Shown here piece after piece: positions 1,742 through 30,970 of a stretch of DNA of 64,000 nucleotides; the stretch's first letter is position 1, and every line of letters starts with the position of its first letter. A program made the position numbers and the translations under genes. The stretch spans positions 4,800,001 to 4,864,000 of the forward strand of contig OZ253580.1 of NCBI GenBank assembly GCA_965263035.1. The letters run 5' to 3'. The notes under the pieces were generated by a model. It saw nothing but the letters and a program-made list of their open reading frames with translations, searched no databases and was not told where the DNA came from. The stretch is from Acidobacteriota bacterium (lineage in GTDB: Bacteria; Acidobacteriota; UBA6911; RPQK01; JAJDTT01).

Positions 1742-3658
1742 GTGGTGAAACGCTGGCAACACCGCAACCGTCCCAGGTTCTCCGGACTCGGTTCGTTTTT
1801 CTTCGGGGTGGCCTGTATCGCGCTGTTGTGGTTTGTTTCGTCCACGGGCCGACTCCAGGCGCAATCCTCCGGCGATGAGGCCCTTCCCGAGCCGACGTTG
1901 ATCTCGGTCTTTCCTCCCGGCGGGCAGCAGGGATCCCGGATCGAACTCGAGATCCGGGGGGAAGCGCTGGACGGCGCCTATTCGGTTGTCTTCGGTTCCG
2001 TCGGCTTGGAGGCTCAGGTCGGTGAAGTCGAGAAGCTTGAGGCGCGGGAACCGGCGACGCCGTCTCCCAAGAAGAAATCGTACCCCCTCTTTCGAGTGAC
2101 GGCGCACCTCACCGTGGACTCGTCGGTTCCCGCCGGAACCCATCGGTTTCGCTTGGTTTCTCATCGAGGGGTTTCCAACGCGCTCCATTTCCGGGTCGAC
2201 GAAGACACCGTCACCAGCGAGATCGAAACCCCACATCCATCGGCCCGGCAGGCGCAGGAGATCGACCTCCCTGTCATCGTCAACGGCCGTATCGGCGAGC
2301 ATGGCGAACTGGACGCCTATCGGTTCGACGCGGTTGCCGGTCAGGAGCTGACCTTCGTAATCACCCAGGCCGCACACTTCGAGCCCCGGCTTGCCCTTTA
2401 CCGTCCGACCGGGAGCTGGCTCGATCCCGACCGTCCCACCCGGCTCCTTTTCCGGGAGCAGGTGTCTTCCGACCTGATTCCGGTTCGGCACCGTTTCTCC
2501 TACCGTGTGGCGGAGTCGGGACTCTACCTGTTGGAGGTTGCGTCGCTCTTGGGAAAAGGGGGCCCCGACTGTGGCTATCAGCTTCGGGTTCTGACCGCCG
2601 GCCCGGCTCCGCAGGCAACGTCTGAACCCACGTGGACCGAACGACACTTCACCCGGAAGATCGATGCCGATTGGACCGACCGTCTCCGATCCCGGACCGT
2701 CCTCCAGGAGCAGCCGCATTCCCAAGGCCGCGAGACGGCCACCGGGGCCGGCAGCCTGGCGGTCTCCCCGGATGCTACGCCGTCGGCGACGGATCGAACC
2801 CCCCAGGGTCTGGCCCGGCTGCTGGAGCGGGAGCCCAACGAGCTGCGCGGACAGGCGTTGCCGGCTTCCATAGGGGAGCTCATCGACGGCACTATCGGCG
2901 CCCCGGGCGACCGCGACACCTACACCTTCGAGGGGGAGGCGGGCACCCAACTGATTCTCGAGCTGGCGACGCCGCGGGTGGGGCCGCCCCATTTCAATCC
3001 GCGCGTGGAGCTGTACGAAGACCAGGGTGGTTCGGTGCTGGCCAACGTCCACAAGTATGGAACGATCTACAACGGCGGCGGTATTCCGAGTTCCTTCTTG
3101 AAGACGGTCGAACCCAAGATGGCCTACACGCTGGAGCGAAGCGGCCGGTTCTTTGTGGAGGTTCGCGACGTCACCTCGCGTTACGGCGGCCCGGACTACG
3201 AGTACCGGTTGCTGGTTCGAACCCCGATTCCCCATGTCGGGGCCTTCGACGTGGACCCCGTCGAACGCATCAACCTGGTCCCGGGAATAGCCAGAAAGCT
3301 GAGCATCGTCACTCACCAGGAAGAAGGCTTTGCCGGTGAAGTCCTCTTCGCCTGTTCCAACCTGCCGCCCGGTGTCCAGATCTTCCCGGGTGCCGATGTG
3401 GAGAAGAAGAGTTCCGCATCCGTCAGCAAACAGGAGGAAAGTTTCCTGCCCGGAATACAGAAGACGACCCTGGTCCTTCTGGCCGAACCGGATGCTCCGG
3501 TGACCCGCATGCCCGAGTGGATTCGGATCACCGCCAGACCCGTGGTCGGAGGACGGGTCGGCGCGGACCTGCCCGTCTTGGAAGTTCCGCTGATGGTGGT
3601 CGCACCGGCCGATCCGGAGAGCAACTCCGGGGAAGGGGACTCCCAATCGTCGTCATGA
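1742..3658 (+). CDS. Secreted PPC (pre-peptidase C-terminal) domain protein of DUF1501/DUF1549 clusters
   Basis: Signal peptide; SVFPPGGQQG start; repeated EREPN..A..L...GTIG.PGD.D.Y.F PPC motifs; ATGA overlap with next gene. Confidence 0.85.
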   Translation: MVKRWQHRNRPRFSGLGSFFFGVACIALLWFVSSTGRLQAQSSGDEALPEPTLISVFPPGGQQGSRIELEIRGEALDGAYSVVFGSVGLEAQVGEVEKLEAREPATPSPKKKSYPLFRVTAHLTVDSSVPAGTHRFRLVSHRGVSNALHFRVDEDTVTSEIETPHPSARQAQEIDLPVIVNGRIGEHGELDAYRFDAVAGQELTFVITQAAHFEPRLALYRPTGSWLDPDRPTRLLFREQVSSDLIPVRHRFSYRVAESGLYLLEVASLLGKGGPDCGYQLRVLTAGPAPQATSEPTWTERHFTRKIDADWTDRLRSRTVLQEQPHSQGRETATGAGSLAVSPDATPSATDRTPQGLARLLEREPNELRGQALPASIGELIDGTIGAPGDRDTYTFEGEAGTQLILELATPRVGPPHFNPRVELYEDQGGSVLANVHKYGTIYNGGGIPSSFLKTVEPKMAYTLERSGRFFVEVRDVTSRYGGPDYEYRLLVRTPIPHVGAFDVDPVERINLVPGIARKLSIVTHQEEGFAGEVLFACSNLPPGVQIFPGADVEKKSSASVSKQEESFLPGIQKTTLVLLAEPDAPVTRMPEWIRITARPVVGGRVGADLPVLEVPLMVVAPADPESNSGEGDSQSSS

Positions 3659-6240
3659 AGGTCCGGGTGTCCGATTGGATCACTTCCCAATGGAATCGAT
3701 GCGGGCGGAGGCCCGGCCCCATTCTCTGCTCGACGGTCATCGTCGTTTCCTCAGTCCTTGTTTGCGCGATGGCCGCCTTCGAGGCGCCGGCGCCGAGCCA
3801 CTCCCCGACACTGCTCGCTCTGAGATTGGTCCCGGAGCAGGCGCACTTGACGGGTCCGGAGGCTGCCCAGCGTTTCGTCGTCATGGGGACGTTCGCCGAT
3901 GGTCTGGAGAGGGATCTGACCTCGGACAGCCGGCTTCGAATTTCCGATCCTGAACTGGCGCGCGTGGGTGACGCCGGCAGGGTCGTCGCCCTGGCGCCGG
4001 GCGAGGTGACTCTCCGGGCCCGGATCGGGGGGCGCGAAGCCCAGTCCCGGATTCGAATCGATCCCGGCGCGGCTCAGAGACCCTTCCGTTTCGACCGCGA
4101 TATCGCCTCCATTCTGACCAAACGGGGCTGCAACGCCAGCGAGTGCCACGGCAGCGTCAAGGGAAAGGGAGGTCTCAAGCTCTCCCTCGACGCTCTCTAT
4201 CCGGAAGAGGACCACGAGTGGATCGTGAAAGGGGGGATCTACCAGGTCCTGGTCATGGAATCGGGCGGTCCGCGGGTGCCGCGCGTGAATCCGGAGCGTC
4301 CGGAGGAGAGCCTGCTGCTGCAGAAGGCCGCCATGCAGGTGATCCACGGCGGCGGTGAGCGCCTGGGCGCCGACTCTGCGGACTACGCCGCCCTTCTGGA
4401 TTGGATCCGGGAAGGGGCCGAATATGGCGACCGAAATGAAGATGGGCGGATAGTCCGGGTGACGGTCTTCCCGCAGGAATCCGTCTTGGACGGCAAGGGT
4501 GTACAGCAGCTTCTGGTGACCGCCTACGGACCCGACGGCCGTGGCGAGGACATCAGTCACCAGGCTCGCTACGTCTCCCAGAACCCCCACGTCGTGACGG
4601 TCGACGAAAACGGCCGGGTCACGGCCGCCGGGACGGGAGAGACCACCATCCTGGTCCGCACCGCCGGTCACGCCCTCAGCGCACGCTTCGGAGTCGTGGA
4701 TGCGTCGGCCCCAGTCGACTTCAGAATCGAGCCCCGCAATCTCATCGACGAGCACGTCTTCGCCAAACTGCGAAAGTTCCAGATCCGTCCTTCTGCGCTT
4801 TCCAGCGATTCGGAATTCCTGCGCCGCGTCTGTATGGACATCACCGGCACCCTGCCGCCGCCGGATCGCGTCCGGGAATTCCTGGCCGACCGCGACCCGC
4901 GGAAACGGGACAAGCTCATCGAGACTCTCCTGGACTCTCCCCAGTACGTGGACTATTGGAGTTTCCTGTTCGGGGACCTGTTCCGGGTGACCTACACCTC
5001 CGTGGGCTCGCTCAAGGAGGTCAAGGCATACGGCGACTGGGTCCGCAACGGCATCCTCCAGAACAAGCCCTACGACCGCATGGCGCGGGAACGTATCGCC
5101 GCTCAGGGGTACGCGGCTCCCACCCGTCACTTTTTTCGTTATACCGAACTGGTCGTGCCCCACGAGATCATGGCCGAGCAGGTCCGCGTCTTCATGGGGC
5201 GCCGGCTGGATTGCGCCCAGTGCCACAACCATCCCTTCGAGACCTGGAGCCAGGACCAGTTCTGGGGAATGACCGCCTTTTTCGGCAACGTCACGCAACT
5301 TCTGGATTCCCAATTGGTTTTCGACAATCCGGAGGGTGGGCGATCCTACGACTTGAAACGGGAGGGCATCAAAACCGTCCATCCACGCCGGAAGGAAGAA
5401 GTCCGGGCCGGGTTCCTGGACGGGTCATTCCCGACAGGGGAACAGGAGCGCGATCCGCGCCTGGCTCTGGCCGACTGGATCATCGCCCAGCCCGCCTTCG
5501 CCCGGACCGTCGTGAACCGGGTCTGGGGCTATTACTTCGGCCGGGGAATCGTGGACCCTGTGGACGATTTCAAGGTATCCAACCCGCCGACCCATCCCGA
5601 GCTGCTGTCGGCGCTGGCGGAAGACTTCGTGGAGCACGGCTACGACCTGAAGCACCTGATGAGGCGGATCGTCCGGTCGTGGACCTACCAGACTTCGGGA
5701 GTCCCCAACCGGACCAACCAGGAAGATGGAATCAACTATGCGCGGGCTTTGGCCCGGCCGTTGCAGGCCACCGTCCTGCTGGACGCCATCTCCCACGCCA
5801 CCGGGGTCCCGGAGGAGTTCCCGGTGCACCCCAAGACCGTGCGCACCGGCGCGGCTCGTCCGGGGGCCCGCGCCATCGACCTGATTCCCGAACTGTTTCC
5901 CTGCCATTTCCTCAACGTCTACGGACGGTCCATGCGCAAGTCGCTTCCGGAAAAGCCGTCCCTGACCTTGGCCCAGGCCCTGCACATGTGGGCGGGATCG
6001 ACTTATACGACCAAAATCACCCAGGAGGGCGGACGTCTCGACCGGGCGCTGCGGGAAGGCCTATCCGATGCCCGGATCATCGAAGACTTCTACCTGGCAG
6101 CGCTTTCGCGCTATCCGACCGAACGGGAAAGATCCGACCTGGAAGCGTATGTCCGAGAGGGATCCTCCCCGCGGCCGGAGCAACTGGCGAACCTGATGTG
6201 GGCCCTAATCAGCTCGCGGGAGTTTGCATACAATCATTGA
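3655..6240 (+). CDS. DUF1549/DUF1553 (PSD1) protein with two Ig-like domains
   Basis: GCNASECHG, EFLRRVCMDITGTLP, LDCAQCHNHPF, VNRVWGYYFGRGIVDPVDD, SREFAYNH; start set at the ATGA overlap. Confidence 0.92.
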   Translation: MKVRVSDWITSQWNRCGRRPGPILCSTVIVVSSVLVCAMAAFEAPAPSHSPTLLALRLVPEQAHLTGPEAAQRFVVMGTFADGLERDLTSDSRLRISDPELARVGDAGRVVALAPGEVTLRARIGGREAQSRIRIDPGAAQRPFRFDRDIASILTKRGCNASECHGSVKGKGGLKLSLDALYPEEDHEWIVKGGIYQVLVMESGGPRVPRVNPERPEESLLLQKAAMQVIHGGGERLGADSADYAALLDWIREGAEYGDRNEDGRIVRVTVFPQESVLDGKGVQQLLVTAYGPDGRGEDISHQARYVSQNPHVVTVDENGRVTAAGTGETTILVRTAGHALSARFGVVDASAPVDFRIEPRNLIDEHVFAKLRKFQIRPSALSSDSEFLRRVCMDITGTLPPPDRVREFLADRDPRKRDKLIETLLDSPQYVDYWSFLFGDLFRVTYTSVGSLKEVKAYGDWVRNGILQNKPYDRMARERIAAQGYAAPTRHFFRYTELVVPHEIMAEQVRVFMGRRLDCAQCHNHPFETWSQDQFWGMTAFFGNVTQLLDSQLVFDNPEGGRSYDLKREGIKTVHPRRKEEVRAGFLDGSFPTGEQERDPRLALADWIIAQPAFARTVVNRVWGYYFGRGIVDPVDDFKVSNPPTHPELLSALAEDFVEHGYDLKHLMRRIVRSWTYQTSGVPNRTNQEDGINYARALARPLQATVLLDAISHATGVPEEFPVHPKTVRTGAARPGARAIDLIPELFPCHFLNVYGRSMRKSLPEKPSLTLAQALHMWAGSTYTTKITQEGGRLDRALREGLSDARIIEDFYLAALSRYPTERERSDLEAYVREGSSPRPEQLANLMWALISSREFAYNH

Positions 6241-6349
6241 GGAACGGGAGCGGCGGCTTTCTTGCCGCCGGACTCCAATGCAACAATGGGCCAAATAAGG
6301 AACGGACGACCGCAACGTCGCCCCCCCAACGAGTAATGGAGAAGGAAAG

Positions 6350-7696
6350 TTGAAAGAATACCGGTGTTTCCAGTGCAGGCGGACCAAACTCGGGCGCCGC
6401 GACTTCCTCCGCGTAGGTTCCCTGAGCTTTCTCGGGATGAACGCCGGCGACCTCCTCAGTCTGGAGCGTCTCCAAGCGGCGGCCGGCGCCAAACCTCCCG
6501 CGGGCCAGGCTCAGGCCTGCATTCTCCTCTTCCTGGAGGGCGGCCCCAGCCAGATGGATACCTGGGATCCCAAGGGGAACACCAACTTCGGCTCCATCGC
6601 CACCAACGTCGACGGCATCCGGATCTCCGAACTCCTGCCCCGGACGGCCGGGCACCTGGACAAGCTCTCGCTGATCCGGTCCATGCGGACGCAGGAGACC
6701 AACCACCCCCAGGGGACCATCGAGTCCCTCACCGGCCATCGGCCCAGCCCCACCATGAAGTTCCCGGGGTTCGGCTCGATCGTGGCCAAGGAAATGGGTC
6801 CCCGCAACGGCATGCCGCCGTTCACCACGGTCCCCATGCCTTGGGAGAACGACTTCTACAACTACGAGGAGGCCTTCAAGGGCTCGTACATCGGCGCCGA
6901 GTACGACGCCATGGTCCTGCCGGACCCCAGCGGAGAGGAATATGTCGTACCCGACCTCCGGTTGCCCAAATCGGTCTCCGCCGCGGCCATCGAAGACCGG
7001 AAGACCCTGCTCAGCATCGTGGACCGGCATTACCGGGCCACCCAGGAGGTGGCCGAGTTCGGCAAGATGGACACTTACCGCGAGCAGGCACTGGGCATGA
7101 TCCTCTCGTCTCACGTCCAGAAGGCGTTCGACCTCTCCAGCGAATCAGAGAAGACCAGGGACGCGTACGGACGCCACCGCTTCGGCCAGAGCGTTCTGAT
7201 GGCCCGCCGCCTGGTGGAGGCCGGGTGCCGCTTCGTCACGGCGGCCGGTTACAAGCACGGGCAGTGGGACACGCACGGGAGCAACGACAAGCGGCTCAAG
7301 GAAGACCTGACCCCTCCCCTGGACCAGGCGCTCACCGCGCTGTTGGAAGATTTGGAACAGAGGGGTCTGTGGGAATCGACGGTGGTGCTGGTCATGGGTG
7401 AGTTCGGGCGGACTCCCCACATCAATCCCGGCCTGGGTCGGGATCACTGGCCCCACTGCTGGTCGTTGGCCCTGGGAGGCGGCGGTATCCAAGGGGGGCA
7501 GGTCATCGGCGTCAGCGACGACCGGGCCGCCTTCGTTGCGGAACGCCCGATCTCCATCGGCGACCTCTACGCCACCATCTACAAGGCGCTGGGTATCGAT
7601 TGGACCAAGACCTACATGGCTCCCGTTGGACGTCCCGTCTACATCGCCAACGGTTTCGACGACACCATGGGGCAGCCCATCCCGGAATTGATCTGA
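6350..7696 (+). CDS. DUF1501 domain protein
   Basis: RRDFL leader, LEGGPSQMDTWDPK, WDTH, GEFGRTP, RDHW. Confidence 0.95.
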   Translation: MKEYRCFQCRRTKLGRRDFLRVGSLSFLGMNAGDLLSLERLQAAAGAKPPAGQAQACILLFLEGGPSQMDTWDPKGNTNFGSIATNVDGIRISELLPRTAGHLDKLSLIRSMRTQETNHPQGTIESLTGHRPSPTMKFPGFGSIVAKEMGPRNGMPPFTTVPMPWENDFYNYEEAFKGSYIGAEYDAMVLPDPSGEEYVVPDLRLPKSVSAAAIEDRKTLLSIVDRHYRATQEVAEFGKMDTYREQALGMILSSHVQKAFDLSSESEKTRDAYGRHRFGQSVLMARRLVEAGCRFVTAAGYKHGQWDTHGSNDKRLKEDLTPPLDQALTALLEDLEQRGLWESTVVLVMGEFGRTPHINPGLGRDHWPHCWSLALGGGGIQGGQVIGVSDDRAAFVAERPISIGDLYATIYKALGIDWTKTYMAPVGRPVYIANGFDDTMGQPIPELI

Positions 7697-7709
7697 CGAT
7701 TCGCGCGTT

Positions 7710-10463
7710 GTGACCGCCGCTGATCGCCCCAATTCGCCCTGGCCGCTGGGCTCCTGTCCGACTCTGGCCCGATCCGTTCCGAAACGGATGCACGCGCTGA
7801 CCCTGTACCGGGACCGATACGGTCCGCCCCGGGACGTGGTCCGGCTGGAGCAGGTCGAGGTTCCACGCCTGCGCGCCGCCGACGCCCGGGGTGTCCTCGT
7901 ATCCGTGCTGGCCAGCGGACCCAACTTCAATACCAATTTTGCGGCTCTGGGGCTGCCGGTTCCCGTCTTCGCCCGGGGCGACAGCGCCACCCTGCACATT
8001 CCGGGAAGCGACGCCCTGGGCATCGTGGTGAATGCGGGCCCGGCGGTCCGGTCGGTGAAGGTGGGACAGGCCGTCATTCTCGATTCCTGGACGGGTCACA
8101 ACATCCGCGGCTACGAGACCCACGACGGCTTCAATGCCCAGTTCGCCCTGGTCGACGAAGAGCGCGCCATTCCGCTGCCCCCGTCCCTCGGCGGCCACAG
8201 CCCCGAGCAGCTCTCGGCCATGCTACTCACCTACGGCACAGCCTACCGCACCGTAGTCGAGCGTCTGGCCGTCGGTCCGGGAGATTCCATGCTGGTCCTG
8301 GGAGGCGGGAAGGGAACCAGCTTCGCCGCCGCACAACTGGGAAAGGCCCTCGGAGCCCGCGTCGTCCTGATGGGTTCGAATCCGAAGTTGGGCCGATCCC
8401 TCATCGAACGGGGAATCACCGACGCCTTCGTCGACCGGCGGCAGATCCCGGCCGAGGTCTTCGGCGTGGTCGACGTGGCGGAAGAATATGACCGGTGGTA
8501 CGCTCGGACTGAGCCCTTTCGCCGGATCGTGCTGGCCGCCAATCAAGGTCGTCCTGTGGACACGGTCTTCGAGCATACCGGGGGCGCCAACTTTCCTCTG
8601 CTGGTTTCGGTTCTCGGCCCGAACGGACGACTCGCCTTCTTCGGCGCCACCGGCCGGGGCCTCAAGGGCGAATACAAGGAGACCTTCTTCTACGACGGAC
8701 GGCGCTTCGTCATGGACGCCCGCTGGGTCTGGATGCGCCAGAAGCAGGTCCTCTTTCGGAGCGGGACCCCGGCGGAGATCTTCTCGGAGATCGGTCTGCT
8801 GCCGGGGCGAAGAGGGCTGGTCTGGGGCGCCGACCGGTACGCGCGGGATTTCGTCGAGGCCGCACTGCAGCGGCGGGCGGACCTGGCGGTGGTCGCCTCC
8901 CGTTCCCGGGAATCGGAAGGGCTGGCCGCTCTGTTCCGGATGGGCCTCACCGAGTCGCAGGTCATCGATCGCGATCGGTTCCGTCTACCCGACGACATGC
9001 CGGATCCCTTGACCGACGAGGGGACGCCGAATCCCGCCTACATGTCCGATTTCATGATGGACGCCCGGGCTCTGGGCCGGGCCATCTGGGGGGTCTTCGG
9101 TCCTCGGGTCAATCCGGACTTCATCGTGGAGCGGCCCGATCAGAGTACGCTGCACGTGAGCACATTCCTGCTGAGGGACCATGACGAGAAGGACGAGATG
9201 CCGTGCGGCGTCGTCGTCGCCCGCGGGTCGTCCGACCTGACCGTCTCCGGCTCCCACATGTATCGAGCGGCCCAGGCTCGGGAGACGGTCCGACTGCTGG
9301 CCCGGAATCGAATCGTCATGGACCAGGAGGACCTGGAGGTGGTGAGCCTGTCCGGACTGCCGGAGATCCAGCAGAAGATGCTGGACGGCACCATGGCGAA
9401 ACCCAAGGGGGTGGCGCTGGTCCAGGCGGACGCCGCAGGCCGGAGGATCTCCGACTACGAAGCCGAGTACCTGGGCAAAAAGCTCCGAGAGGCCGACCCG
9501 GAAAACGGCCGGTTCATCGCCTTGAGCCTGATCGACGAGGTAGGAATCCTCACACTCCAAAGGCCGGACGCCTTGAACGCTCTCAATCAGGAACTGCTAG
9601 ACCAGCTCGCCGGGTTGGTGGAAGAGGTCGAGAAGCACGGGTCCCTCCACGGAGAAAAGACGAGCGCCCTGATCCTGCGTGGCTCGGGACGAGCTTTCGT
9701 GGCGGGGGCCGACGTCCAGGGCTTCGTGGGCCGGGACGCGGAGGCCATCCGGCGTCTGGCAGCGGAGAACATGGCTCTCTTCCGGCGGCTGGAAACCCTG
9801 CCTCTTCCGGTGGTGTCGATCGTGGACGGCTTCGCGCTGGGAGGCGGCAACGAGCTGGCCATGAGCACCCACTATCGAATCGTCACTGAGAACGCGGTCA
9901 TCGGGCAGCCGGAAGTGAAGCTCGGCATCATTCCCGGATACGGGGGCATGCAGAGGCTGCCGAGGCTTATCGGTCCGCGGAGAGCCGCGGAGATGGCGGT
10001 CAACGGAGAATCGGTGGACGGACGCACGGCGGTGATGATCGGGCTGGCCCAAGAGTTCCATCCCTCCTGCACCGCCCTGGCCAGAGCGTTTCAGGTGGCC
10101 GGCGAGCTCCGGTCCGGGACGCATCGGCCCGAAGCGTCCGATTGGGATCGCCTCGCTGCCACCCACGGTCCCGAAATGGATACGCTCTACCAAAGCGAGG
10201 CCGTGACCACACTCTTGAATGCGCCGGCTCCCACCGGCAGGGGCGCGGAAGATCTGCGGGCCGCTCGCGAGTTCGCGGCCCGGTTGGCGCTGACGGCCCT
10301 GCGGTTCGGTTACGAGCACGGGTTCGCCCGCGGCATGGACAACGACGCGAGACTGTTCGGTGAAGCCGTGGCGTCGGCGTCCGGTCAGTGGTGGGTGCGG
10401 CGTTTTCTGGCGAAAGATCCCAGGCAGTCCACTTTCCTGACCTTGCTGGCGCCCGAGGTGTAA
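7710..10463 (+). CDS. Ccr/propionyl-CoA-synthase-type enoyl-CoA reductase fused to a C-terminal enoyl-CoA hydratase
   Basis: Ccr motifs GPNFN, HIPGSDA, GYET, GTAYR, VFEH, WVWMRQK, GSH; crotonase motifs AFVAGADV, GGGNE, GQPEVKLGIIPGYGG. Confidence 0.9.
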   Translation: MTAADRPNSPWPLGSCPTLARSVPKRMHALTLYRDRYGPPRDVVRLEQVEVPRLRAADARGVLVSVLASGPNFNTNFAALGLPVPVFARGDSATLHIPGSDALGIVVNAGPAVRSVKVGQAVILDSWTGHNIRGYETHDGFNAQFALVDEERAIPLPPSLGGHSPEQLSAMLLTYGTAYRTVVERLAVGPGDSMLVLGGGKGTSFAAAQLGKALGARVVLMGSNPKLGRSLIERGITDAFVDRRQIPAEVFGVVDVAEEYDRWYARTEPFRRIVLAANQGRPVDTVFEHTGGANFPLLVSVLGPNGRLAFFGATGRGLKGEYKETFFYDGRRFVMDARWVWMRQKQVLFRSGTPAEIFSEIGLLPGRRGLVWGADRYARDFVEAALQRRADLAVVASRSRESEGLAALFRMGLTESQVIDRDRFRLPDDMPDPLTDEGTPNPAYMSDFMMDARALGRAIWGVFGPRVNPDFIVERPDQSTLHVSTFLLRDHDEKDEMPCGVVVARGSSDLTVSGSHMYRAAQARETVRLLARNRIVMDQEDLEVVSLSGLPEIQQKMLDGTMAKPKGVALVQADAAGRRISDYEAEYLGKKLREADPENGRFIALSLIDEVGILTLQRPDALNALNQELLDQLAGLVEEVEKHGSLHGEKTSALILRGSGRAFVAGADVQGFVGRDAEAIRRLAAENMALFRRLETLPLPVVSIVDGFALGGGNELAMSTHYRIVTENAVIGQPEVKLGIIPGYGGMQRLPRLIGPRRAAEMAVNGESVDGRTAVMIGLAQEFHPSCTALARAFQVAGELRSGTHRPEASDWDRLAATHGPEMDTLYQSEAVTTLLNAPAPTGRGAEDLRAAREFAARLALTALRFGYEHGFARGMDNDARLFGEAVASASGQWWVRRFLAKDPRQSTFLTLLAPEV

Positions 10464-10472
10464 CCGGGGCCG

Positions 10473-11015
10473 TCAACGGTTTCTGGCCGGATCCTCCAGG
10501 AACAGCTTGAAGCGGACTTGCTCCCAATCACCCCAGTTCCTTCTTCTCTGGAAGAGGAAGTGGACCTCCGAATCTTCGGTGCCGCGAAAGGCGCGGAGAG
10601 TGTTCTCCCAGTTCTGCACCTGGTCCTGGTATTGGGGCCGGCCCGTCTTGCTCAACTGTCTTTCTTCTGCCGTCCCCATCGGGACGGCTGTCGACCGCAG
10701 ATACAGAGTCCCGACGATGGGAATGACTCGATCCGACTCCGTTTCAGTCCGCGCTTCGCCCGGGACGGTGGCGACGACCTCTTCGCCCTTCAGAAAGACC
10801 AGGGAACAGCCTTCCTCCTCGCGCCGGACTTCCAGATCGAAGCCACCCCGGTCCAACCGCTGGCCGTCCTCCGTGTAAAGGTCCCGATCCAGCCGGATCT
10901 CGGTCACATAGACCTCGACGGCTGCCCGCACCTGACCCGCACCTACAGCCAGGATCGCAATCAGGTGGACTCCGGCGACGAAATGCAGACATCGGAGTAG
11001 ACGGGTCCCATTCAT
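10473..11015 (-). CDS. Hypothetical secreted protein
   Basis: 180-aa ORF with signal-like N-terminus; overlaps the stop of the hicB-like gene. Confidence 0.7.
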   Translation of the reverse strand: MNGTRLLRCLHFVAGVHLIAILAVGAGQVRAAVEVYVTEIRLDRDLYTEDGQRLDRGGFDLEVRREEEGCSLVFLKGEEVVATVPGEARTETESDRVIPIVGTLYLRSTAVPMGTAEERQLSKTGRPQYQDQVQNWENTLRAFRGTEDSEVHFLFQRRRNWGDWEQVRFKLFLEDPARNR

Positions 11016-11227
11016 GAGACGATTCCCGTTTCTCGGATGGCCTCAGGGGGCACACCGCGCAATTCTTTCTCGCGGCGTTCCTTGAGGATGAGCGCTATGG
11101 CCTCCGCCAGATTGTCACGAGCCTCATCCTTGGACTTGCCCTGACCGTTGGCGCCAGGGATTTCCGGGCAGTAGGCAATATGCCACTCTCCGTCCCGCTC
11201 GATAATGGACGTGAACGGATTCGTCAC
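11012..11227 (-). CDS. hicB: HicB-family antitoxin (short form, orphan)
   Basis: IAYCPEIPGANGQGKSKDEARDNLAEAI HicB signature. Confidence 0.88.
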   Translation of the reverse strand: MTNPFTSIIERDGEWHIAYCPEIPGANGQGKSKDEARDNLAEAIALILKERREKELRGVPPEAIRETGIVS

Positions 11228-12041: not shown

Positions 12042-13511
12042 TTAACTTCGCTGGAGTAGCCGCCGTGAGAGGTCGTTGTAACCCCCCACGTCGGTGAGTC
12101 GCCGGTCCCGTCCCTGGAAGAAGTAGGTGAGTCCTTCGTGGTCCAGGCCCAGCAGCGAGAGGATGGTGGCGTGCAGGTCGTGGACGTGAACCTTGTCCTC
12201 GGTCGCCTTCATTCCCAGGTCGTCGGTGGCGCCGATGGCCTTCCCTCCCTGGATTCCGGCTCCCGTCATCCAGCATGAGAATCCGTACGGGTGATGATCC
12301 CGGCCGAGTTTTCCCTGCACGAACGGCGTCCGGCCGAATTCCCCGGAACAGAACACCAGGGTGCTCTCCAGCAGCCCCCGCTGCTTGAGATCCTGCAGCA
12401 GGCCGGCGATGGGCTGGTCCACCTTTCTGGAGTTGTCCCAATGGTTCCGGGAACATTGCTCGTGGCCGTCCCAGTCGGTGCTGATCAGGTGTACGAAGCG
12501 GACGCCGCGTTCCAACATGCGCCGGGTCAGCAGGCACATCCGCCCGAACTTCCGGCTCTTTTCCTGGTCCAGTCCGTACAGCCGGCGGATGTGTTCCGGC
12601 TCCCGGGAGAGGTCGACGAGTTCCGGCGCGGCGGTCTGCATTCGGAAAGCCAGCTCATAGTTGGAGATGCGAGCCGCCAGACTCGTGTCGTCGGAGCGGG
12701 CCTGGTAGTGCCGCCGGTTCGACTTCCGGATCCAGTCCAGGAGGTTCCGCTGATCCGCCGGGGTCATCTCCTGGGGAGGAGTCAGGTCCTTGAGAGGGGC
12801 GCCCTCGGAGCGCAGCAGGGTGCCCTGGTAGATGGCGGGCAGGAACCCGGAGCCGAAGTGGTTCCGGTTGGTCCGGCCCCACAAGTTGCCGTCGGTCATC
12901 ACCATGTAGGCGGGAAGATTGTCGTTCTCGCTCCCCAGGCCGTACAGGATCCAGGACCCGACGCTGGGATGTCCCGTGAGGATGGAACCGGTGCAGAGGT
13001 AGTTGGTCGCCGGACCGTGGACGAAGGAATCATGGTAGCAGGAGCGGACCACTGCCAAGTCGTCGGCGTGCGTGGCCACCTTCCGCATGAGATCCGAAAT
13101 CTCCAGCCCCGACTCCCCGTACCTGCGAAAGGGGATGTCCGAACCCATCAGCTTGGCTTCGCCGGCGGCGATATTGGCGAAATTGAGATCGCCCGAGGCG
13201 AAGCTCTGGGGAAGGTTCTGGCCGTCGTAGCGCGTCAGAGCCGGCTTGGGATCCAGGGTGTCCACATGGCTGGCGCCTCCCTGGAGATAGATGAAGACCA
13301 CGTTGCGGCCACTTGCGCTCTGGTGAGGAGGCTTGGGTGCGAGCGGGTGCAGAATCGATTCCCGGGTCCCCTTGGCGGAGGCCGTCCGGAAGAAGGATTC
13401 CCGCTCCAGCAGATGGATCAGCGGCAGGGAGCCGAAGCCCATTCCCCACTTGCTCAGGAACTCGCGTCGTGAGCCGGCCGGTTCATGGCGATGGCAGTGG
13501 AAGGGATTCAT
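12042..13511 (-). CDS. DUF1501 domain protein
   Basis: SRREFL, GGASHVDTLDPKP, YELAFRMQ, WDGH, GEFGRTP, RDHH. Confidence 0.95.
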   Translation of the reverse strand: MNPFHCHRHEPAGSRREFLSKWGMGFGSLPLIHLLERESFFRTASAKGTRESILHPLAPKPPHQSASGRNVVFIYLQGGASHVDTLDPKPALTRYDGQNLPQSFASGDLNFANIAAGEAKLMGSDIPFRRYGESGLEISDLMRKVATHADDLAVVRSCYHDSFVHGPATNYLCTGSILTGHPSVGSWILYGLGSENDNLPAYMVMTDGNLWGRTNRNHFGSGFLPAIYQGTLLRSEGAPLKDLTPPQEMTPADQRNLLDWIRKSNRRHYQARSDDTSLAARISNYELAFRMQTAAPELVDLSREPEHIRRLYGLDQEKSRKFGRMCLLTRRMLERGVRFVHLISTDWDGHEQCSRNHWDNSRKVDQPIAGLLQDLKQRGLLESTLVFCSGEFGRTPFVQGKLGRDHHPYGFSCWMTGAGIQGGKAIGATDDLGMKATEDKVHVHDLHATILSLLGLDHEGLTYFFQGRDRRLTDVGGYNDLSRRLLQRS

Positions 13512-13526
13512 GGAATAAACCGCTTC

Positions 13527-16148
13527 TCAATCAATATGGCTGAACTCGTTGACATTAAACAGTCCCAGGCAGAACTGGGTCAAGGCTGCGGCCCGCCGCC
13601 GTGGAATCTTCTCGAGCTGGGCCGGAAGCTCGAACCATTTCTCTACCTTCACCTCCCGGGCTCGGGCCGACATCAGTTCCAGGGCTTCCTTCTTCTCCGT
13701 GGCGGACGGCGCCCGGCTCAGGGCAAGCCGCCACGCCTTCTCCACCCAGGCTCCCGGGTCGTCCCCCTCGCTCTCCACCAGTCGGGACGCAAAGGCCACT
13801 GCCTGCCGGAACGCCATCCGGTTGTTGAGGAACCAGAGGGCCTGCGGCGCTACCGTGGTGACGTCACGGCGGGGGCAGCTGACGGCGTTCTGGGGGCTGT
13901 CGAAGACGTCGAACATGGGAAACCGGAGATTGCGGCGGCTGAGGATATAGACGCCCCGGCGGAGTTGGGAGAGGGGGTCCGCGACGGTCAGCCAACCTTT
14001 GGGACCTCCCAGGCTTTCCATCTCTTCAGCTCCGAGTGGCGGCGCCGCCGGACGGCCGTACACCCCGAGATTCAGGGTGCCGGCCACCGCAAGGGTGGCG
14101 TCCCAGAGGACTTCCGCTTCCAACCGCCGCCGGTTCATCCTCCAGAGGAGACGGTTTTCGGGATCCAGCGAGTAAGCGGCCGGATCGCCGTGCAAGCTCG
14201 ACATGCGGTAAGTGCTGGAGTTCAGGATCAGCCAGTGCATCGCCTTGAGGCTCCAGCTCCGGGCCGTGAACTCGACGGCCAGCCAATCCAGGAGCTGTGG
14301 ATGACTGGGCTGCTCTCCCTGGCGGCCGTAGTCGTTGGGAGTTCCCACCAGTCCTTGTCCGAAATGCCATTGCCAGAGCCGGTTCACCATGACCCGAGCG
14401 GTGAGAGGGTGGTCCGGACGGCTCAGCCAGAGCGCCAACTGCTTGCGGGGGCGGTTCCCCATTGATCCCGAGAAGACGCCATTGGGATCGGTCTCCCGGC
14501 TAAGCACCGCCGGCAAGCCGGGTCCGACCCGTTCCTCCTTGCGTCTGAACTCGCCTCGACTCAAGACGTGAACGGGTGCGGAAGCCTCCCGATCGTAATG
14601 ATCCAGCACTGAAGCGGTCGGTAACTCAAGCAGTCCTTCGAACCGGACCAGATTGGAGCCCTCGATCTCGGAGACCTTGAGTACGGCCCGGGCCAGCCCG
14701 AAAAGCAATTTTTGGTGTTCGTCCTGCTCCGGCTCGGTCAGAGCCTCCTCGAATTTGACGGCACGGACCGCCTCCATCAGGAGTTTGGCCAATTCTTCCT
14801 GCTCCGGGGTCCGCCGATCATTGTCCGTCTCGTAGGCTTCCACCACTTCCGGTGAAAATTGCGCCTTCTTCTCCTGTTCGATCCTCTTTTTGACCCGTTT
14901 CTCGAATCGGCGATAAGCGGAACGGCTTTCGTCCACGGCGATGACGGCGGGGTAGTCGATGTTCCGCGAGACCGCCTGAATGGGACTCATGATGGGGACG
15001 TCGACCTTGTGGCTGTTGGCGAACAGGGCCTGGAAGGCGTAGTAGTCCCTCTGGCTGATGGGGTCTGCTTTGTGATCGTGACAGCGGGCGCAGCCCAGAG
15101 TGAGCCCCAGAAAGGCGGCGCCGGTGGTGTCCGCCCAATCGGTCAGTTCTTCGGCGCGCAACTGCTGGGCGTCCTGCATCGACTCCAGCACCTCGGGCCC
15201 GAACGTGTAGAGGCCGGTTCCGACCCGTGCTTCCAGGTATTCGTTCTTCTTCAGGGGAATGGTCCGGCTCCCCAGGAGCTCGAATCGTTGGGGCCAGAGC
15301 TCGTCGCCTGCGACCTGCTCCTGCAGGAAACGGTCGTAGGGCTTGTCCTCGTTGAACGACTTGATGACGTAGTCCCGATACCGCCAGGCGTTGGGGTAGT
15401 AGTGGTCCGACTCGTATCCGCTGCTGTCGGCATAGCGGACCACGTCCAGCCAGTGCCGGGCCCAGCGCTCGCCGTAGCGTGGCGATTCCAGCAGCTTGCC
15501 CACCATCTTGCCGTAGGCCTCGGGCGAGTCGTCTTCCAGGTGCCGGTCCACCTGCTCCGGCGTCGGCGGAAGTCCGATGAGATCGAAGTAGGCTCTTCGG
15601 ATCAGGGTTCGCCGGTCGGCCTCGGGCGCCGGTTTCAAGCCCTTTTCCTGAAGCCGGGCCAGCACGAATGCATCGATGGGGTTCCGGACCCAGCCGTCCG
15701 CTTCCGTCTCTGGAACGGGTGGCCGCCGGAGCTTCCGGAACGACCACCAGGAGGGTGGGGAGGGGCCGTCTTCCCGGACGCCGGTCCAAGGAAGGCCGGC
15801 GTCGATCCAGCGGCGCAGCACCTCCAGATCCGCAGCCGCCAGCGGAGAGCCGCCCGGGGGCATTTTCAGCTCGCCGTCATGGGAAGCGGCCAGAAACAGC
15901 AGGCTTGAGCCGGCGTCTCCGGGAATCGCCGCCGGACCCCGCTGGCCGCCTTCCAGCAGAGTTTGCCTCCCGCTCAGATCAAGTCCCCCCTGGCGCGCCA
16001 CGCCATGGCAGGCAAGGCAGTCCCGCTCCAGAATCTCAAGAGCGGCCCCCACCACCGATCCGTCCGATTCCGTAGCGATAGTACTACCGGTCAGGAATGG
16101 CAGCGACCAGAACACGATGGCCAGGAAGGCATAAAGCCGGTTGATCAT
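13527..16148 (-). CDS. Planctomycete cytochrome c (PSCyt1) + DUF1549 + DUF1553 protein
   Basis: Signal; CLACH, YGERWARHWLDVVRYADS, CARCHDHK, ARVMVNRLWQWHFG. Confidence 0.95.
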   Translation of the reverse strand: MINRLYAFLAIVFWSLPFLTGSTIATESDGSVVGAALEILERDCLACHGVARQGGLDLSGRQTLLEGGQRGPAAIPGDAGSSLLFLAASHDGELKMPPGGSPLAAADLEVLRRWIDAGLPWTGVREDGPSPPSWWSFRKLRRPPVPETEADGWVRNPIDAFVLARLQEKGLKPAPEADRRTLIRRAYFDLIGLPPTPEQVDRHLEDDSPEAYGKMVGKLLESPRYGERWARHWLDVVRYADSSGYESDHYYPNAWRYRDYVIKSFNEDKPYDRFLQEQVAGDELWPQRFELLGSRTIPLKKNEYLEARVGTGLYTFGPEVLESMQDAQQLRAEELTDWADTTGAAFLGLTLGCARCHDHKADPISQRDYYAFQALFANSHKVDVPIMSPIQAVSRNIDYPAVIAVDESRSAYRRFEKRVKKRIEQEKKAQFSPEVVEAYETDNDRRTPEQEELAKLLMEAVRAVKFEEALTEPEQDEHQKLLFGLARAVLKVSEIEGSNLVRFEGLLELPTASVLDHYDREASAPVHVLSRGEFRRKEERVGPGLPAVLSRETDPNGVFSGSMGNRPRKQLALWLSRPDHPLTARVMVNRLWQWHFGQGLVGTPNDYGRQGEQPSHPQLLDWLAVEFTARSWSLKAMHWLILNSSTYRMSSLHGDPAAYSLDPENRLLWRMNRRRLEAEVLWDATLAVAGTLNLGVYGRPAAPPLGAEEMESLGGPKGWLTVADPLSQLRRGVYILSRRNLRFPMFDVFDSPQNAVSCPRRDVTTVAPQALWFLNNRMAFRQAVAFASRLVESEGDDPGAWVEKAWRLALSRAPSATEKKEALELMSARAREVKVEKWFELPAQLEKIPRRRAAALTQFCLGLFNVNEFSHID

Positions 16149-17020: not shown

Positions 17021-17187
17021 ATTAAGTCCGAAAGCTTCAATTTGTAGGTTGAAGGATCTGGACAAATGCCGCGCCGTGGCAGAATCGACTTTATCCAGGT
17101 TTCCTGTTAGTCTCGCCGGGTTTCGAGCGGGCGGTCCCTGGTGCGGTGACGGCTCGTAGCGAATCCCATCCAACACGAGAGGCGCTC

Positions 17188-18183
17188 ATGGCATTGACAA
17201 CCGAAGCGACCCCCTCGAAAGGACTTGACCCCGCCGCCCGGCTGGACCTGCTGCGTCAGATGCTCACGATTCGGGCGTTCGAGTACCGGGTGGGGGAGTT
17301 CTACGAACGGGCCGAGATGCCGGGCATCACCCATCTCTCCATCGGACAGGAGGCGGTGGCCGTCGGCGTCTGCGCTCACCTCGACCGAAAGGACTACATC
17401 ACCAGCACCCATCGCGGACATGGCCACTGTTACGCCAAAGGCGCCAGCTTGGTCCCCATGTTCGGCGAGTTGCTGGGCAAGGCGAACGGATACTGCCGCG
17501 GCAAGGGCGGGTCCATGCACATCGCCGACCGGGAAACGGGCCACCTGGGAGCCAACGCCATCATCGGCGGGGGCATACCGCTGGCGGCAGGCGCCGCCCT
17601 CTCCGCCAAGGTGCTCCGGAATCGGGGCGTCGGCGTCTCATTCTTCGGCGACGGAGCCCTCAACGAGGGCATCCTGTTGGAAACGATGAACCTGGCCGCC
17701 ATCTGGAAGTTGCCCGCCATCTTTGCCTGCGAGAACAATCACTATGGGGAATACACCCCCACGGAGCAGGTGACCGCCGGCCGCCTCACGCTCCGCGGAG
17801 AGGCCTTCGGCATCCCCTCGTCGGAAGTCGACGGGATGGACGTCCTGGCCGTCTACGACGCCACGTATCCGGCGGTTCAACGTGCCAGGGAGGGTGGTGG
17901 CCCCAGCTTCTTCGTCTTCGACACCTACCGCTACCTGGGTCACGGCATGTCGGATCGAACCAGGCCCTACCGCTCGCGTGAGGAAGAGGACGAGTGGCGG
18001 AGCCGGCGAGACCCCATCGAGCGATTGAGAAAGCAGCTGTTGGAGGCGGGGCACTACACCGATCCGGAACTGGATGCCGTTGGAGAGGAGGTCCGGGCCG
18101 AGGTGGAGGAAGCCGCGCGATTGGCTCAAGAAGCGCCGTTCCCGGACCCGGAAGAGGTGGACCGACATGTCTTCGCAGACTGA
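17188..18183 (+). CDS. TPP-dependent acetoin/2-oxoacid dehydrogenase E1 alpha
   Basis: HLSIGQEA, STHRGHGH, GKGGSMH, FFGDGALNEG...ENNHY. Confidence 0.95.
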   Translation: MALTTEATPSKGLDPAARLDLLRQMLTIRAFEYRVGEFYERAEMPGITHLSIGQEAVAVGVCAHLDRKDYITSTHRGHGHCYAKGASLVPMFGELLGKANGYCRGKGGSMHIADRETGHLGANAIIGGGIPLAAGAALSAKVLRNRGVGVSFFGDGALNEGILLETMNLAAIWKLPAIFACENNHYGEYTPTEQVTAGRLTLRGEAFGIPSSEVDGMDVLAVYDATYPAVQRAREGGGPSFFVFDTYRYLGHGMSDRTRPYRSREEEDEWRSRRDPIERLRKQLLEAGHYTDPELDAVGEEVRAEVEEAARLAQEAPFPDPEEVDRHVFAD

Positions 18184-19168
18184 AGCTCGCCAACTGACCT
18201 TCAGCCAAGCCGTCAACGAGGCGATCCGGGAGGAAATGGATCGCGATCATCGAGTGATCCTGTTCGGTGAGGACGTGGCGGCGGCCGGAGGGGTCTGGAA
18301 GGTGACCGACGGACTCCTGGACCGCTTCGGGGCGGAACGAGTCCTGGATACGCCCATCTCCGAAGCCGGAATCGCCGGTTTGGGCGTGGGGGCGGCCATG
18401 ACCGGTCTGCGGCCCATCGTAGAGATCATGTTCGGTGACTTTCTGCCGCTCGCCTCCGATCAGATCGTCAACCAGGCGGCCAAGACGTATTACATGTCAG
18501 GCGGGATGACCAGCGTCCCCATGGTCTTCCTCACCTCCATGGGCGCCGGGCGCCGTTTGGCGGCTCAGCACTCTCAAAGCCTGCAAGCCTGGTTCGCCCA
18601 TATCCCCGGGTTGAAGGTGGTGCTGCCGTCAAGCCCCCAAGACGCCAAGGGCCTGATGAAGACCGCCATCCGGGACGAGAATCCAGTGGTCTTCCTGCAG
18701 GACAAGGTGGACATCTACCGGAAGGGTCCGGTTCCCGATCCTTCCCACGAGTACACCATCCCCTTCGGTCGCGCCGACGTGAAGCGGGAGGGGGACGATC
18801 TGACCCTGATCGCCACCTCCAGCATGGTCTGGCAGGCCCTGGACGCGGCTTCGGAGTTGGCGGACGAGGGCATCGAGTCGGAGGTCGTCGACCCGCGCAC
18901 CCTGGCGCCGCTGGACGAAGAGGCGCTGCTGGACTCGGTCCGAAAGACGGCTCGCTGTCTGGTGATCGACGAGGGCTACCAGCGCTATGGGGCGGGAGCC
19001 GAGATCGCGGCTCTGATCGGCGAGAATCTGTTCTACGATCTGGAGGCGCCGGTTCGCCGGCTCGGCGCCATGGACGTTCCGGTTCCTTTCTCGCCGACGC
19101 TGGAGGACCTGACCATTCCCCGCAAGGAGCAGATCGTCGAGATCGCCCGCCAGATGTTCGAAGACTGA
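18167..19168 (+). CDS. Dehydrogenase E1 beta
   Basis: GEDV, DTPISE, GLRPIVEIMF, AQHSQ. Confidence 0.95.
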   Translation: MSSQTEARQLTFSQAVNEAIREEMDRDHRVILFGEDVAAAGGVWKVTDGLLDRFGAERVLDTPISEAGIAGLGVGAAMTGLRPIVEIMFGDFLPLASDQIVNQAAKTYYMSGGMTSVPMVFLTSMGAGRRLAAQHSQSLQAWFAHIPGLKVVLPSSPQDAKGLMKTAIRDENPVVFLQDKVDIYRKGPVPDPSHEYTIPFGRADVKREGDDLTLIATSSMVWQALDAASELADEGIESEVVDPRTLAPLDEEALLDSVRKTARCLVIDEGYQRYGAGAEIAALIGENLFYDLEAPVRRLGAMDVPVPFSPTLEDLTIPRKEQIVEIARQMFED

Positions 19169-19236
19169 CCGGTCGTCTACAACCGGGCCTCGCCATTGCC
19201 GGGAACTTTCCATCGATTCCAATTCGGAGAGGATTT

Positions 19237-30181: not shown

Positions 30182-30970
30182 TCAGCCGCTCTCCGCCTTC
30201 CCGGATTGGGAGGCCCGAAAGGTTTCCAAGGCGGACTTGGCCCCGCCGAGCAGAAGGCTGTAGTCGCTCCCGTAGCCCAGGAAGATGAACCCCTGCTCCA
30301 GGCGGTGCGCCAGGTCTTCCGGGCTCCCGACGCCGATGCCGATGGCCACGCCGGTGTCCCGGCCCACCTGCAGAGCCTTGTCGATCACGGCGTCCGTCTC
30401 GGGATTCGGCTGACGCCTGGGGTCCACACCCAGAGCCAGCGACAAATCCCACATGCCCATGTAGAGCAGGTCGACCCCCGGCACGGACGCGATCCGCTCC
30501 AGGTCTTGGACCGCCTCGGCGGTCTCCAGCAGCAGACCCACCAGGATGTTCCGGTTGGCCCGTTCCAGGTAGTCGTTGTAATCGAGGGTGTAGCGGGACG
30601 CGCGCAGAGGACCGAAGCCTCGCTTTCCTTCCGGAGGATAACGGGTGGCGGCCACCACCGCCTCCGCCTCCTCCACGGTCTTCACCATGGGGACGATGAT
30701 CCCCATGGCGCCTATATCCAGAGCCTTCTGTATGGCGAACAGGTCCGAGGGCGGGACCCGGACCATGGGCATGGCGCCGGAACCGTCGATGGCCATGAGC
30801 ATGCGCTCGACCTGAGCCGAATCCAGGGCGTTGTGCTCGGTTTCGACCAGCAGCCATTCGTACCCGGAGTAGGCTAGCAACTCGGCCACCGAGGGACTGC
30901 CCAGTCCCAGAAAACATCCGACGGCGGCTTCACCCGCGATGACCTTCTGACGTATCCGATTGTCCTTCAT
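30182..30970 (-). CDS. HpcH/HpaI class II aldolase
   Basis: ETEH, MVRVP, LDIGA, RYPPEGKRG, LET; GGAGG RBS before ATG 30970. Confidence 0.92.
   Translation of the reverse strand: MKDNRIRQKVIAGEAAVGCFLGLGSPSVAELLAYSGYEWLLVETEHNALDSAQVERMLMAIDGSGAMPMVRVPPSDLFAIQKALDIGAMGIIVPMVKTVEEAEAVVAATRYPPEGKRGFGPLRASRYTLDYNDYLERANRNILVGLLLETAEAVQDLERIASVPGVDLLYMGMWDLSLALGVDPRRQPNPETDAVIDKALQVGRDTGVAIGIGVGSPEDLAHRLEQGFIFLGYGSDYSLLLGGAKSALETFRASQSGKAESG

Follow-up and report, generated by a model that had tools for sequence, protein, structure and literature searches.

We report on a gene for a fused enoyl-CoA reductase and enoyl-CoA hydratase, which is located at positions 7710..10463 on the forward strand of a 64,000 nt stretch of DNA from an Acidobacteriota bacterium (GCA_965263035.1, contig OZ253580.1, positions 4,800,001-4,864,000). 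This whole stretch is called the window in the following. The encoded protein of 917 amino acids (aa) belongs to a family that is tight, uncharacterised, and widespread yet patchy across phyla of uncultured bacteria. Judged by its sequence, the family is a variant within the kind formed by propionyl-CoA synthase (PCS) and the enoyl-CoA carboxylases/reductases (Ccr), and CO2 fixation is undecidable from sequence alone. It is close to certain that the two domains dehydrate a 3-hydroxyacyl-CoA and transfer a hydride to the enoyl-CoA. For the function as a whole, we lean towards a plain dehydratase-reductase with a preference for three-carbon (C3) substrates, which would convert a short 3-hydroxyacyl-CoA into the saturated acyl-CoA. 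Our estimates for plain reduction, for carboxylation and for the use of four-carbon (C4) substrates overlap, as the length of the substrate chain and the carboxylation have to be judged independently.

Domain architecture of the fusion protein

The gene is a single uninterrupted open reading frame (ORF) that starts with GTG at 7710 and ends with the stop codon 10461-10463. The intact frame is accompanied by full-length homologues of 61-92% identity and by contigs from RNA libraries. Pfam places ADH_N at residues 90-157 (28 bits, cut-off 23.5), ADH_zinc_N at residues 206-318 (30 bits, slightly below the cut-off of 31.8) and ECH_1 (PF00378) at residues 611-801 (138 bits, cut-off 27, expect value E 4.7e-40). 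Pfam detects no AMP-binding ligase domain (PF00501/PF13193) in the protein with E <=0.1. The reductase occupies residues 1-590 and the hydratase residues 601-917.

Among solved proteins, the top match is the PCS of Erythrobacter sp. NAP1 (6eqo, E 1e-47 by sequence). The match consists of two pieces in swapped order: residues 611-903 of the query align to PCS residues 906-1203, and residues 35-489 to 1265-1727. An AlphaFold2 model was computed from 32 family sequences, with a predicted local distance difference test score (pLDDT) of 77.8 and a predicted template modelling score of 0.75. In the structure comparison, too, the model is most similar to 6eqo (Foldseek E 1.2e-28 over 660 columns, approximately 22% identity), followed by Ccr structures; a comparison of this type had been proposed with the original prediction. 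Pfam domains, sequence match and structure match are in good agreement with the earlier reading of a bifunctional, PCS-related reductase-dehydratase with reversed domain order and without a ligase, and every motif quoted at that time is present in the translation.

The query and PCS share a dehydratase domain with a C-terminal helical extension as well as a reductase with an inserted Rossmann-like unit, and the two chemical steps are expected to be identical. PCS differs in its AMP-forming ligase domain, which the query lacks and which is seen in P0276 and P0253, both of the canonical PCS type. It also differs in its order, ligase-dehydratase-reductase instead of reductase-dehydratase, and in its length of 1850 aa, the query being half that size. 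PCS is also known from Chloroflexus.

The N-terminal part of the reductase catalytic lobe (residues 1-185, window 7710..8264; this and all following parts of the gene lie on the forward strand) contains ADH_N and the motifs NFN (72-74) and GYE (134-136), and aligns to the Ccr structure 4gi2 from residue 11 onwards. It is followed by a first Rossmann-type nucleotide-binding unit (residues 186-352, 8265..8765), which comprises ADH_zinc_N and the remainder of the 4gi2 alignment up to residue 353. This unit carries the motifs VLGGGKG (196-202) and VFEH (286-289). Its glycine motif reads LGGGKGTS, it terminates in DARWVWMRQKQ, and its strands and helices span residues 193-350 in the model. A second Rossmann-like unit of approximately 160 residues is inserted behind it (residues 353-510, 8766..9239), with the motifs LVWGA (370-374), ARALGRAIW (452-460) and IVER (472-475). 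The chain then returns to the catalytic lobe with GSH (514-516) and continues as a linker to the hydratase (residues 511-600, 9240..9509).

Several observations argue for the duplicated nucleotide-binding domain that had been predicted. An overlapping part of AntE (approximately 268-358 and 288-386) is matched twice, by query residues 237-340 and 442-533, and in a second, separate HMMER match residues 273-311 of 9kva are matched by query residues 449-487. Residues 35-489 are colinear throughout with the PCS reductase (1265-1727), in accordance with the earlier statement that the PCS reductase is similarly duplicated. Finally, a beta-alpha-beta-alpha-beta unit at 193-242 of the model recurs at 368-420. 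What does not follow is a significant mutual likeness of the two halves. Direct comparison of residues 190-350 with 360-520 yields a BLASTP E of 0.56; for the two sub-profiles of the family, hhalign gives an E of 0.11, though with the expected register. Neither value is significant. The glycine motif of the second unit is degenerate (WGADRY), which speaks against a duplication. The duplication is deduced rather than directly seen, because the two units are too diverged for a significant mutual match. By these comparisons, the reductase has an inserted second Rossmann-like unit of the PCS kind.

The crotonase-fold core of the hydratase/dehydratase (residues 601-801, 9510..10112) corresponds to ECH_1 and carries GGGNE (711-715) and QPE (733-735). 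The motifs GGGxE and xPE mark the two catalytic glutamates of the crotonase family, here E715 and E735 (codons 9852-9854 and 9912-9914). Both are invariant within the family, which matches the predicted crotonase with a complete catalytic pair. The core is followed by a C-terminal helical extension (residues 802-917, 10113..10460) that resembles the one in PCS and the FadB/FadJ linker: the PCS alignment reaches query residue 903 (PCS residue 1203), the FadJ model covers residues 608-902, and helices are modelled at 786-900.

The nearest solved relatives of the hydratase half are the PCS dehydratase domain, the crotonase 5z7r from C. acetobutylicum (E 1.5e-34) and the 3-hydroxypropionyl-CoA dehydratase 5zai from M. 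sedula (E 1.4e-33). NCBIfam models of short-chain enoyl-CoA hydratases match with E 1e-46 to 1e-49, at 157-167 bits and thus all below their cut-offs of 313-394 bits. Crotonase 5z7r and the short-chain models are matched as well as the 3-hydroxypropionyl-CoA dehydratase. This fits a C4 enzyme, composed of a crotonase and a crotonyl-CoA reductase, which would convert (S)-3-hydroxybutyryl-CoA to butyryl-CoA with no link to 3-hydroxypropionate. Such an enzyme could serve the reductive use of acetoacetyl-CoA or of carbon derived from polyhydroxybutyrate (PHB), or function as a sink for NADPH. Outside PCS, the best relatives of the reductase are likewise crotonyl-CoA enzymes. However, among characterised proteins both halves are most closely related to PCS, which acts on C3 substrates, and we regard the C4 enzyme as rather unlikely.

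The two reactions expected of the fusion are also expected, in identical form, of the stand-alone 3-hydroxypropionyl-CoA dehydratase and acryloyl-CoA reductase from the archaeal hydroxypropionate/hydroxybutyrate cycle (e.g., 5zai from M. sedula; NF041172). There, they are separate proteins, and the reductase is an ordinary medium-chain dehydrogenase/reductase (MDR) with a single Rossmann unit. This archaeal-type reductase family is not the best match of the query.

Relationship of the reductase to PCS and Ccr

Taken alone, the reductase half matches Ccr best. Structure 4gi2 is found with E 3.6e-30 over query residues 11-347, while the same N-terminal 347 residues match PCS with E 1e-18. The Ccr-type enzymes (KsCcr 6owe, the M. 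extorquens-type 4gi2, AntE and CinF) have the fold of an MDR enoyl-thioester reductase in common with the query, which differs from them by the extra Rossmann-like unit and the fused hydratase. The best NCBIfam model for the reductase is TIGR01751, the Ccr equivalog, but the score of 175.3 bits lies below the cut-off of 378.55 bits. This cut-off is passed by 15 single-domain relatives and by P0198; P0211 falls approximately 1 bit short of it.

A maximum likelihood tree of the reductases was constructed from the shared N-terminal 300 residues of 44 rows, which were labelled by domain architecture and by passing or failing the Ccr model; the outgroup consisted of four generic MDR proteins. One clade (support 93/83) unites the Ccr rows and leaves the query outside. 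All insert-bearing, i.e., duplicated reductases form a separate clade (95/85) that includes the query. The query family itself is a 100/100 clade and sister (95/84) to a clade (100/99) comprising the canonical PCS and several other fusions. The query is excluded from this PCS-containing clade and is thus not nested within it. As the stem of the family is long (1.8 changes per column), its placement has to be taken with caution; the shared insert agrees with the placement.

Other uncharacterised fusions with a duplicated reductase exist. P0226 is a reductase-hydratase of 939 aa, P0287 a hydratase-reductase of 969 aa without ligase, P0198 a reductase-MaoC dehydratase of 711 aa, P0225 an HpcH/HpaI lyase-MaoC-reductase of 2640 aa, and P0249 a hydratase-ligase-reductase giant of 2388 aa. 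Like the query family, with which they form one clade, they combine the reductase module with some dehydratase. They differ in that their identity to the query reductase does not exceed 35% and in that they occupy other tree branches. P0226 has the domain order of the query, yet it is placed inside the PCS-related clade.

The CO2 pocket

The work on KsCcr from K. setae gives N81, F170 (Tyr tolerated), E171 and H365 as the CO2 pocket, with Thr82 and Ser119 orienting the asparagine; the variants T82D and S119A are more than 50-fold slower (PMC6628652). The same text describes the enoyl-CoA carboxylases/reductases as the fastest CO2-fixing enzymes (PMC6628652). In our pocket alignment, N74 (codon 7929-7931) falls on the Asn of NYN and is followed by Thr as in N81-T82 of KsCcr. 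Y135-E136 (codons 8112-8117) correspond to F170-E171, and H516 (codon 9255-9257) to the His of GSH, where the GSH of the query was aligned to that of AntE. The second shell, T75 and S100 (NFNT and GSD), lies in the N-terminal lobe together with N74 and D101. Both residues are in the Ccr state and each is at least 90% conserved in the 32 sequences, with S119 equated to the Ser of GSD by its motif, as the KsCcr alignment itself is not displayed. On the basis of this sequence alignment, the original claim that Asn, aromatic-Glu and His sit at the positions of the Ccr CO2 pocket holds.

Read column by column, the query family has NFN-T, GSD, GYE and GSH. The Ccr rows have NYN-x, GSD or GSE, G[YF]E and GSH, the last taken from the AntE alignment. 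For the PCS rows we find NFN-D, GSG and GYE (GYN in one row), and for the outgroup MDR proteins GAD, GMD or GSD with both the Asn and the aromatic residue absent; the His was compared in neither of these two groups. The query thus has the Asn, the Tyr/Phe-Glu, the His and the second-shell Thr and Ser in common with Ccr at aligned positions, whereas PCS has Asp and GSG where the query has Thr and GSD. As far as aligned residues tell, the pocket of the family is in the full Ccr state, and more so than that of PCS.

This apparent Ccr state is the strongest argument for carboxylation, yet it is not decisive. The pocket motifs do not decide the matter because PCS, with the same four residues, is reported to have almost no carboxylation activity until engineered (PMC7918591, PMC10176493). 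A true reductive carboxylase would trap the enolate with CO2 after the dehydration step. Its product would be (2S)-methylmalonyl-CoA in case of acrylyl-CoA, or ethylmalonyl-CoA in case of crotonyl-CoA, and the ATP of a biotin carboxylase would be saved. In addition to the four pocket residues, which are invariant in 32 of 32 members, and to the second shell, such an enzyme is suggested by the N-terminal 347 residues being closer to Ccr than to PCS, and by the methylmalonyl-CoA epimerase and mutase encoded in the window genome. The PCS precedent (PMC7918591) argues against it, and so does the position of the family outside the Ccr clade, with 175 of 378.55 bits for TIGR01751. A gene for a PccB-type carboxyltransferase occurs here and in three of five genomes that carry a longer version of the fusion, so the ATP-dependent route has not been given up. 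Furthermore, the model loops 72-100 and 126-142 have a pLDDT <50, and pocket geometry and water access are unreadable in them. All in all, we consider a carboxylase conceivable but doubtful. From the CO2-fixing fusion of the original prediction, the alignment of the pocket residues stands; carboxylation as such does not follow from it, given the identical residues in PCS and the distance to the Ccr clade and model.

Family size, conservation and distribution

A word-indexed protein search yielded 483 family proteins. Among the 120 of these matches that were listed, lengths range from 888 to 982 aa and identities from 63 to 91%, and the homologues bear generic names, e.g., 'enoyl-CoA hydratase-related protein'. 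In an exhaustive HMMER search, the family reduces to a few representatives at 50% identity; for the next relatives, identity does not exceed 37%. Mean column identity in the 32-member alignment is 73%, with N72, N74, Y135, E136, G514, S515, H516, E715 and E735 invariant in all members.

A scan at species level, with one genome per species, revealed 126 stretches that encode the protein; 78 loci were retained from these. Except for one 'Bacterium isolate', their record titles are marked as metagenome-assembled genomes (77 out of 78). The titles name Acidobacteriota, Deferrimicrobiaceae, Desulfobacterales, Gaiellaceae, Chloroflexia, Methylomirabilis, Pseudomonadales and others. The closest relatives, with 88-92% identity, are Acidobacteriota. 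Within a sample of this phylum, the gene is present in 8 of 301 genomes and 3 of 185 genera, all of them in the order of the window genome; with so few carriers in its own phylum, the distribution is patchy.

The full-text literature that was searched contains no description of a ligase-less reductase-hydratase relative of PCS, in line with the earlier suggestion of a possibly undescribed fusion; primary PCS papers, which lie outside this search, may mention homologues. Neither a natural acrylyl-CoA carboxylase nor a long fusion with multiple short-chain dehydrogenase/reductase (SDR) domains is described in this literature. A 2026 survey preprint, based on malonyl-CoA reductase and malyl-CoA lyase as markers, does not mention such fusion forms in its accessible part.

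A multi-SDR partner in related loci

Most of the longer family proteins (47 out of 51) represent the same fusion plus a multi-SDR sequence and measure 2033-2647 aa. A multi-SDR module of 1665 aa is fused or directly adjacent downstream in 22 of the 78 species loci, for example at L077:9657-14651 and likewise in 21 other loci. Its best match among solved proteins is the malonyl-CoA reductase 8hjw (E 4.5e-25). Module residues 1092-1309 correspond to the N-terminal catalytic SDR of 8hjw and residues 539-752 to the C-terminal one, so that the order is permuted. The apparent likeness to malonyl-CoA reductase is weak, being architectural and not a proof. If genuine, it would link the family to 3-hydroxypropionate.

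The first 530-540 residues of the module, approximately, have no Pfam family and no usable match in the ESM Atlas. A model of the first 540 residues (pLDDT 74.8) has no Foldseek match at E <=0.001 and shows helical hairpins resembling tetratricopeptide repeats only (VIA-align, best Z 8.6); no ligase or CoA-transferase fold was recognised in this part.

With regard to a C4 enzyme, the partner might just as well be a 3-oxoacyl-CoA reductase and so complete a set of ketoreductase, dehydratase and enoyl reductase. Against this, the partner resembles malonyl-CoA reductase in having two catalytic SDRs embedded in a large multi-SDR body, instead of a single ketoreductase, and none of the 78 loci shows a linked thiolase or PHB gene.

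No universal neighbour exists across the 78 loci. An ADP-forming acyl-CoA synthetase is found nearby in six of them and an AMP-forming one in five; with respect to the 22 module-bearing loci, seven have a synthetase of either type within <=10 kb. The loci also bear on a possible supply of alkylmalonyl-CoA extender units for polyketide or lipid synthesis, a role known from many Ccr homologues of secondary metabolism. It is brought up by AntE and CinF, two Ccr homologues from polyketide pathways among the solved relatives. However, no gene for a polyketide synthase, an acyl carrier protein or a related function lies beside the gene in the window or recurs in the 78 loci, and an identity of 61-92% across phyla is better explained by a housekeeping-type constraint. 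We therefore judge this role to be very improbable.

Five genomes with the long fusion were inspected, the completeness of which is not known. All five encode a methylmalonyl-CoA mutase, and three of them a PccB-type carboxyltransferase adjoining the mutase. A 4-hydroxybutyryl-CoA dehydratase of the AbfD type is present in three (G301, G302 and G303). One copy from G303, L082:762-2234, matches 1u8v with E 4.8e-143 and is the single copy compared with solved structures; G303 has three HpaB_N-family copies, of which one was checked against 1u8v. The set of AbfD-type dehydratase, methylmalonyl-CoA mutase and PccB recalls the archaeal hydroxypropionate/hydroxybutyrate cycle.

Metabolic context of the window genome

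The genome containing the window is a single contig of 6.2 Mb with a completeness of 97%. Two genes for methylmalonyl-CoA mutase, one for a PccB-type carboxyltransferase and one for a methylmalonyl-CoA epimerase give it an outlet for propionyl-CoA. This gene content supports a predicted route that leads from propionyl-CoA or methylmalonyl-CoA to succinyl-CoA. Both mutase genes and the PccB-type gene are surrounded by scattered housekeeping genes, which provide no operon clue.

Neither mesaconyl-CoA hydratase nor isocitrate lyase was found in the 97% complete genome, nor was an AbfD-type 4-hydroxybutyryl-CoA dehydratase. In view of these negative results, there is no support here for an ethylmalonyl-CoA pathway or for an autotrophic hydroxypropionate cycle. 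The result for mesaconyl-CoA hydratase also speaks against the ethylmalonyl-CoA branch of a C4 function, whereas the absence of a malonyl-CoA-reductase-like gene from the window genome is a point in favour of C4 substrates. The number of HpcH/HpaI-family genes (aldolase-, citrate-lyase-beta- or malyl-CoA-lyase-like) is unusually high with 16 genes, one of them located in the window at 30251-30922 (-). As a separate matter, a missing propionyl-CoA carboxylase was considered as a sign of carboxylation and rejected, since the PccB-type gene occurs here and in three of the five long-fusion genomes.

Proposed function

In the plain dehydratase-reductase that we favour, the crotonase domain would dehydrate a short-chain (S)-3-hydroxyacyl-CoA to the 2-enoyl-CoA, and the PCS-type enoyl-thioester reductase would then reduce the latter with NADPH. 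The likeliest substrate would be 3-hydroxypropionyl-CoA, which would yield propionyl-CoA via the reactive acrylyl-CoA, and the enzymes of the window genome would carry propionyl-CoA on to succinyl-CoA. A separate ligase or transferase would supply the CoA ester. The fusion may serve to retain acrylyl-CoA against escape, as in PCS, which is the textbook example of a toxic intermediate hidden in a reaction chamber. The analysis shows the domains, the catalytic residues, the relationship to PCS, the conservation and the occurrence in RNA libraries; we infer the chain length of the substrate, the direction, the use of NADPH, the channelling and whether the enolate takes up a proton or CO2. The order of events, dehydration and then reduction, is assumed because of thermodynamics and by analogy to PCS. 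C3 substrates are favoured because of the kinship to PCS, the short-chain relatives of the hydratase and the fusion partner in relatives.

Several points weigh against this assignment. No source of 3-hydroxypropionyl-CoA was identified in the window genome. The multi-SDR module is absent from it, the best tblastn match of 83 bits being to generic SDRs, and it was not found in any of five other short-form genomes either. With these genomes lacking the module, the family works without the multi-SDR partner in most lineages, and the C3 link may hold for one lineage only. Single FabG-type reductases match each SDR of the module equally or better, and in the 78 loci a ligase or CoA-transferase is neither fused nor conserved nearby. 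Because the pocket residues correspond to those of a carboxylase, a carboxylated product could be formed, and the poorly modelled pocket loops obscure the geometry for plain reduction as well. The RNA-library contigs prove neither transcription nor its level, because DNA can occur in such libraries.

The family unites an enlarged reductase of the PCS type, a complete Ccr-type CO2 pocket with its second shell and a built-in dehydratase, with no ligase. If the enzyme performs plain reduction, it would represent the PCS principle in a simpler two-domain form and a route for 3-hydroxypropionate/acrylate carbon in uncultured bacteria. If it is a carboxylase, it would provide synthetic CO2 fixation with a ready-made component. 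A more far-reaching version, which we see as a long shot, would be a natural acrylyl-CoA carboxylase/reductase with its own dehydratase: the malonyl-CoA-reductase-like long fusion, as one giant protein, would run from malonyl-CoA via 3-hydroxypropionate chemistry to methylmalonyl-CoA, and the short form described here would perform an ATP-free C3 carboxylation. In that event, the long fusion would be the reductive arm of a bacterial hydroxypropionate-type CO2 fixation. Such a route would parallel, in nature, the synthetic HOPAC cycle; alternatively, in view of the AbfD-type genes in three of the five long-fusion genomes, it would be a bacterial hydroxypropionate/hydroxybutyrate-like cycle. The short form of the window genome, where the partners are lacking, would then serve ATP-free, carboxylating C3 assimilation.

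RNA-library coverage and gene surroundings

Directly upstream of the reductase-hydratase gene lies a DUF1501 gene (6350-7696, Pfam E 2.6e-98). Its TGA occupies 7694-7696 and the GTG follows 13 bases on, which reproduces the 13 bp gap reported before. No sigma-70-like promoter was found in 7400-11200, and terminator-like sites in this region occur at chance frequency.

The stretch is present in sequencing runs of nine studies, seven runs being recorded as RNA. Contigs from RNA libraries were compared for four assemblies of two studies; two of the assemblies are labelled sponge metagenome. The gene is covered by contigs from both studies. One contig of 2930 bases extends over 7577-10506 and so has nearly the boundaries of the gene; the junction to the DUF1501 gene is bridged by a contig of another run (7487-7865). 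In runs X17 and X19, parts of the gene are without contig, which is uninformative. In one study, the contig of the DUF1501 gene (6300-7606) has approximately 8x the word depth of the reductase-hydratase contig (7577-10506), and contigs break near 7577-7606 in both runs of that study. The difference in depth is a hint of separate transcript levels, contig depth being a poor measure.

The reductase-hydratase gene is flanked by two pairs of PSCyt/PSD1 (DUF1549/DUF1553) and DUF1501 genes, at 3517-7696 (+) and 12042-16148 (-). Such pairs are best known in Planctomycetes. In the window, they provide no functional clue for the reductase-hydratase. A convergent ORF of 180 aa (10473-11015, -) has a signal-peptide-like N-terminus and no Pfam family; homologues of it keep this position in nine related Acidobacteriota loci. 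Further genes of the window include a leucine-rich-repeat protein truncated by the window start (2-1636, -), the genes E1 alpha, E1 beta and E2 of a 2-oxoacid dehydrogenase complex (17146-20406, +), and an FG-GAP/ASPIC-UnbV repeat protein (20884-22611, +).

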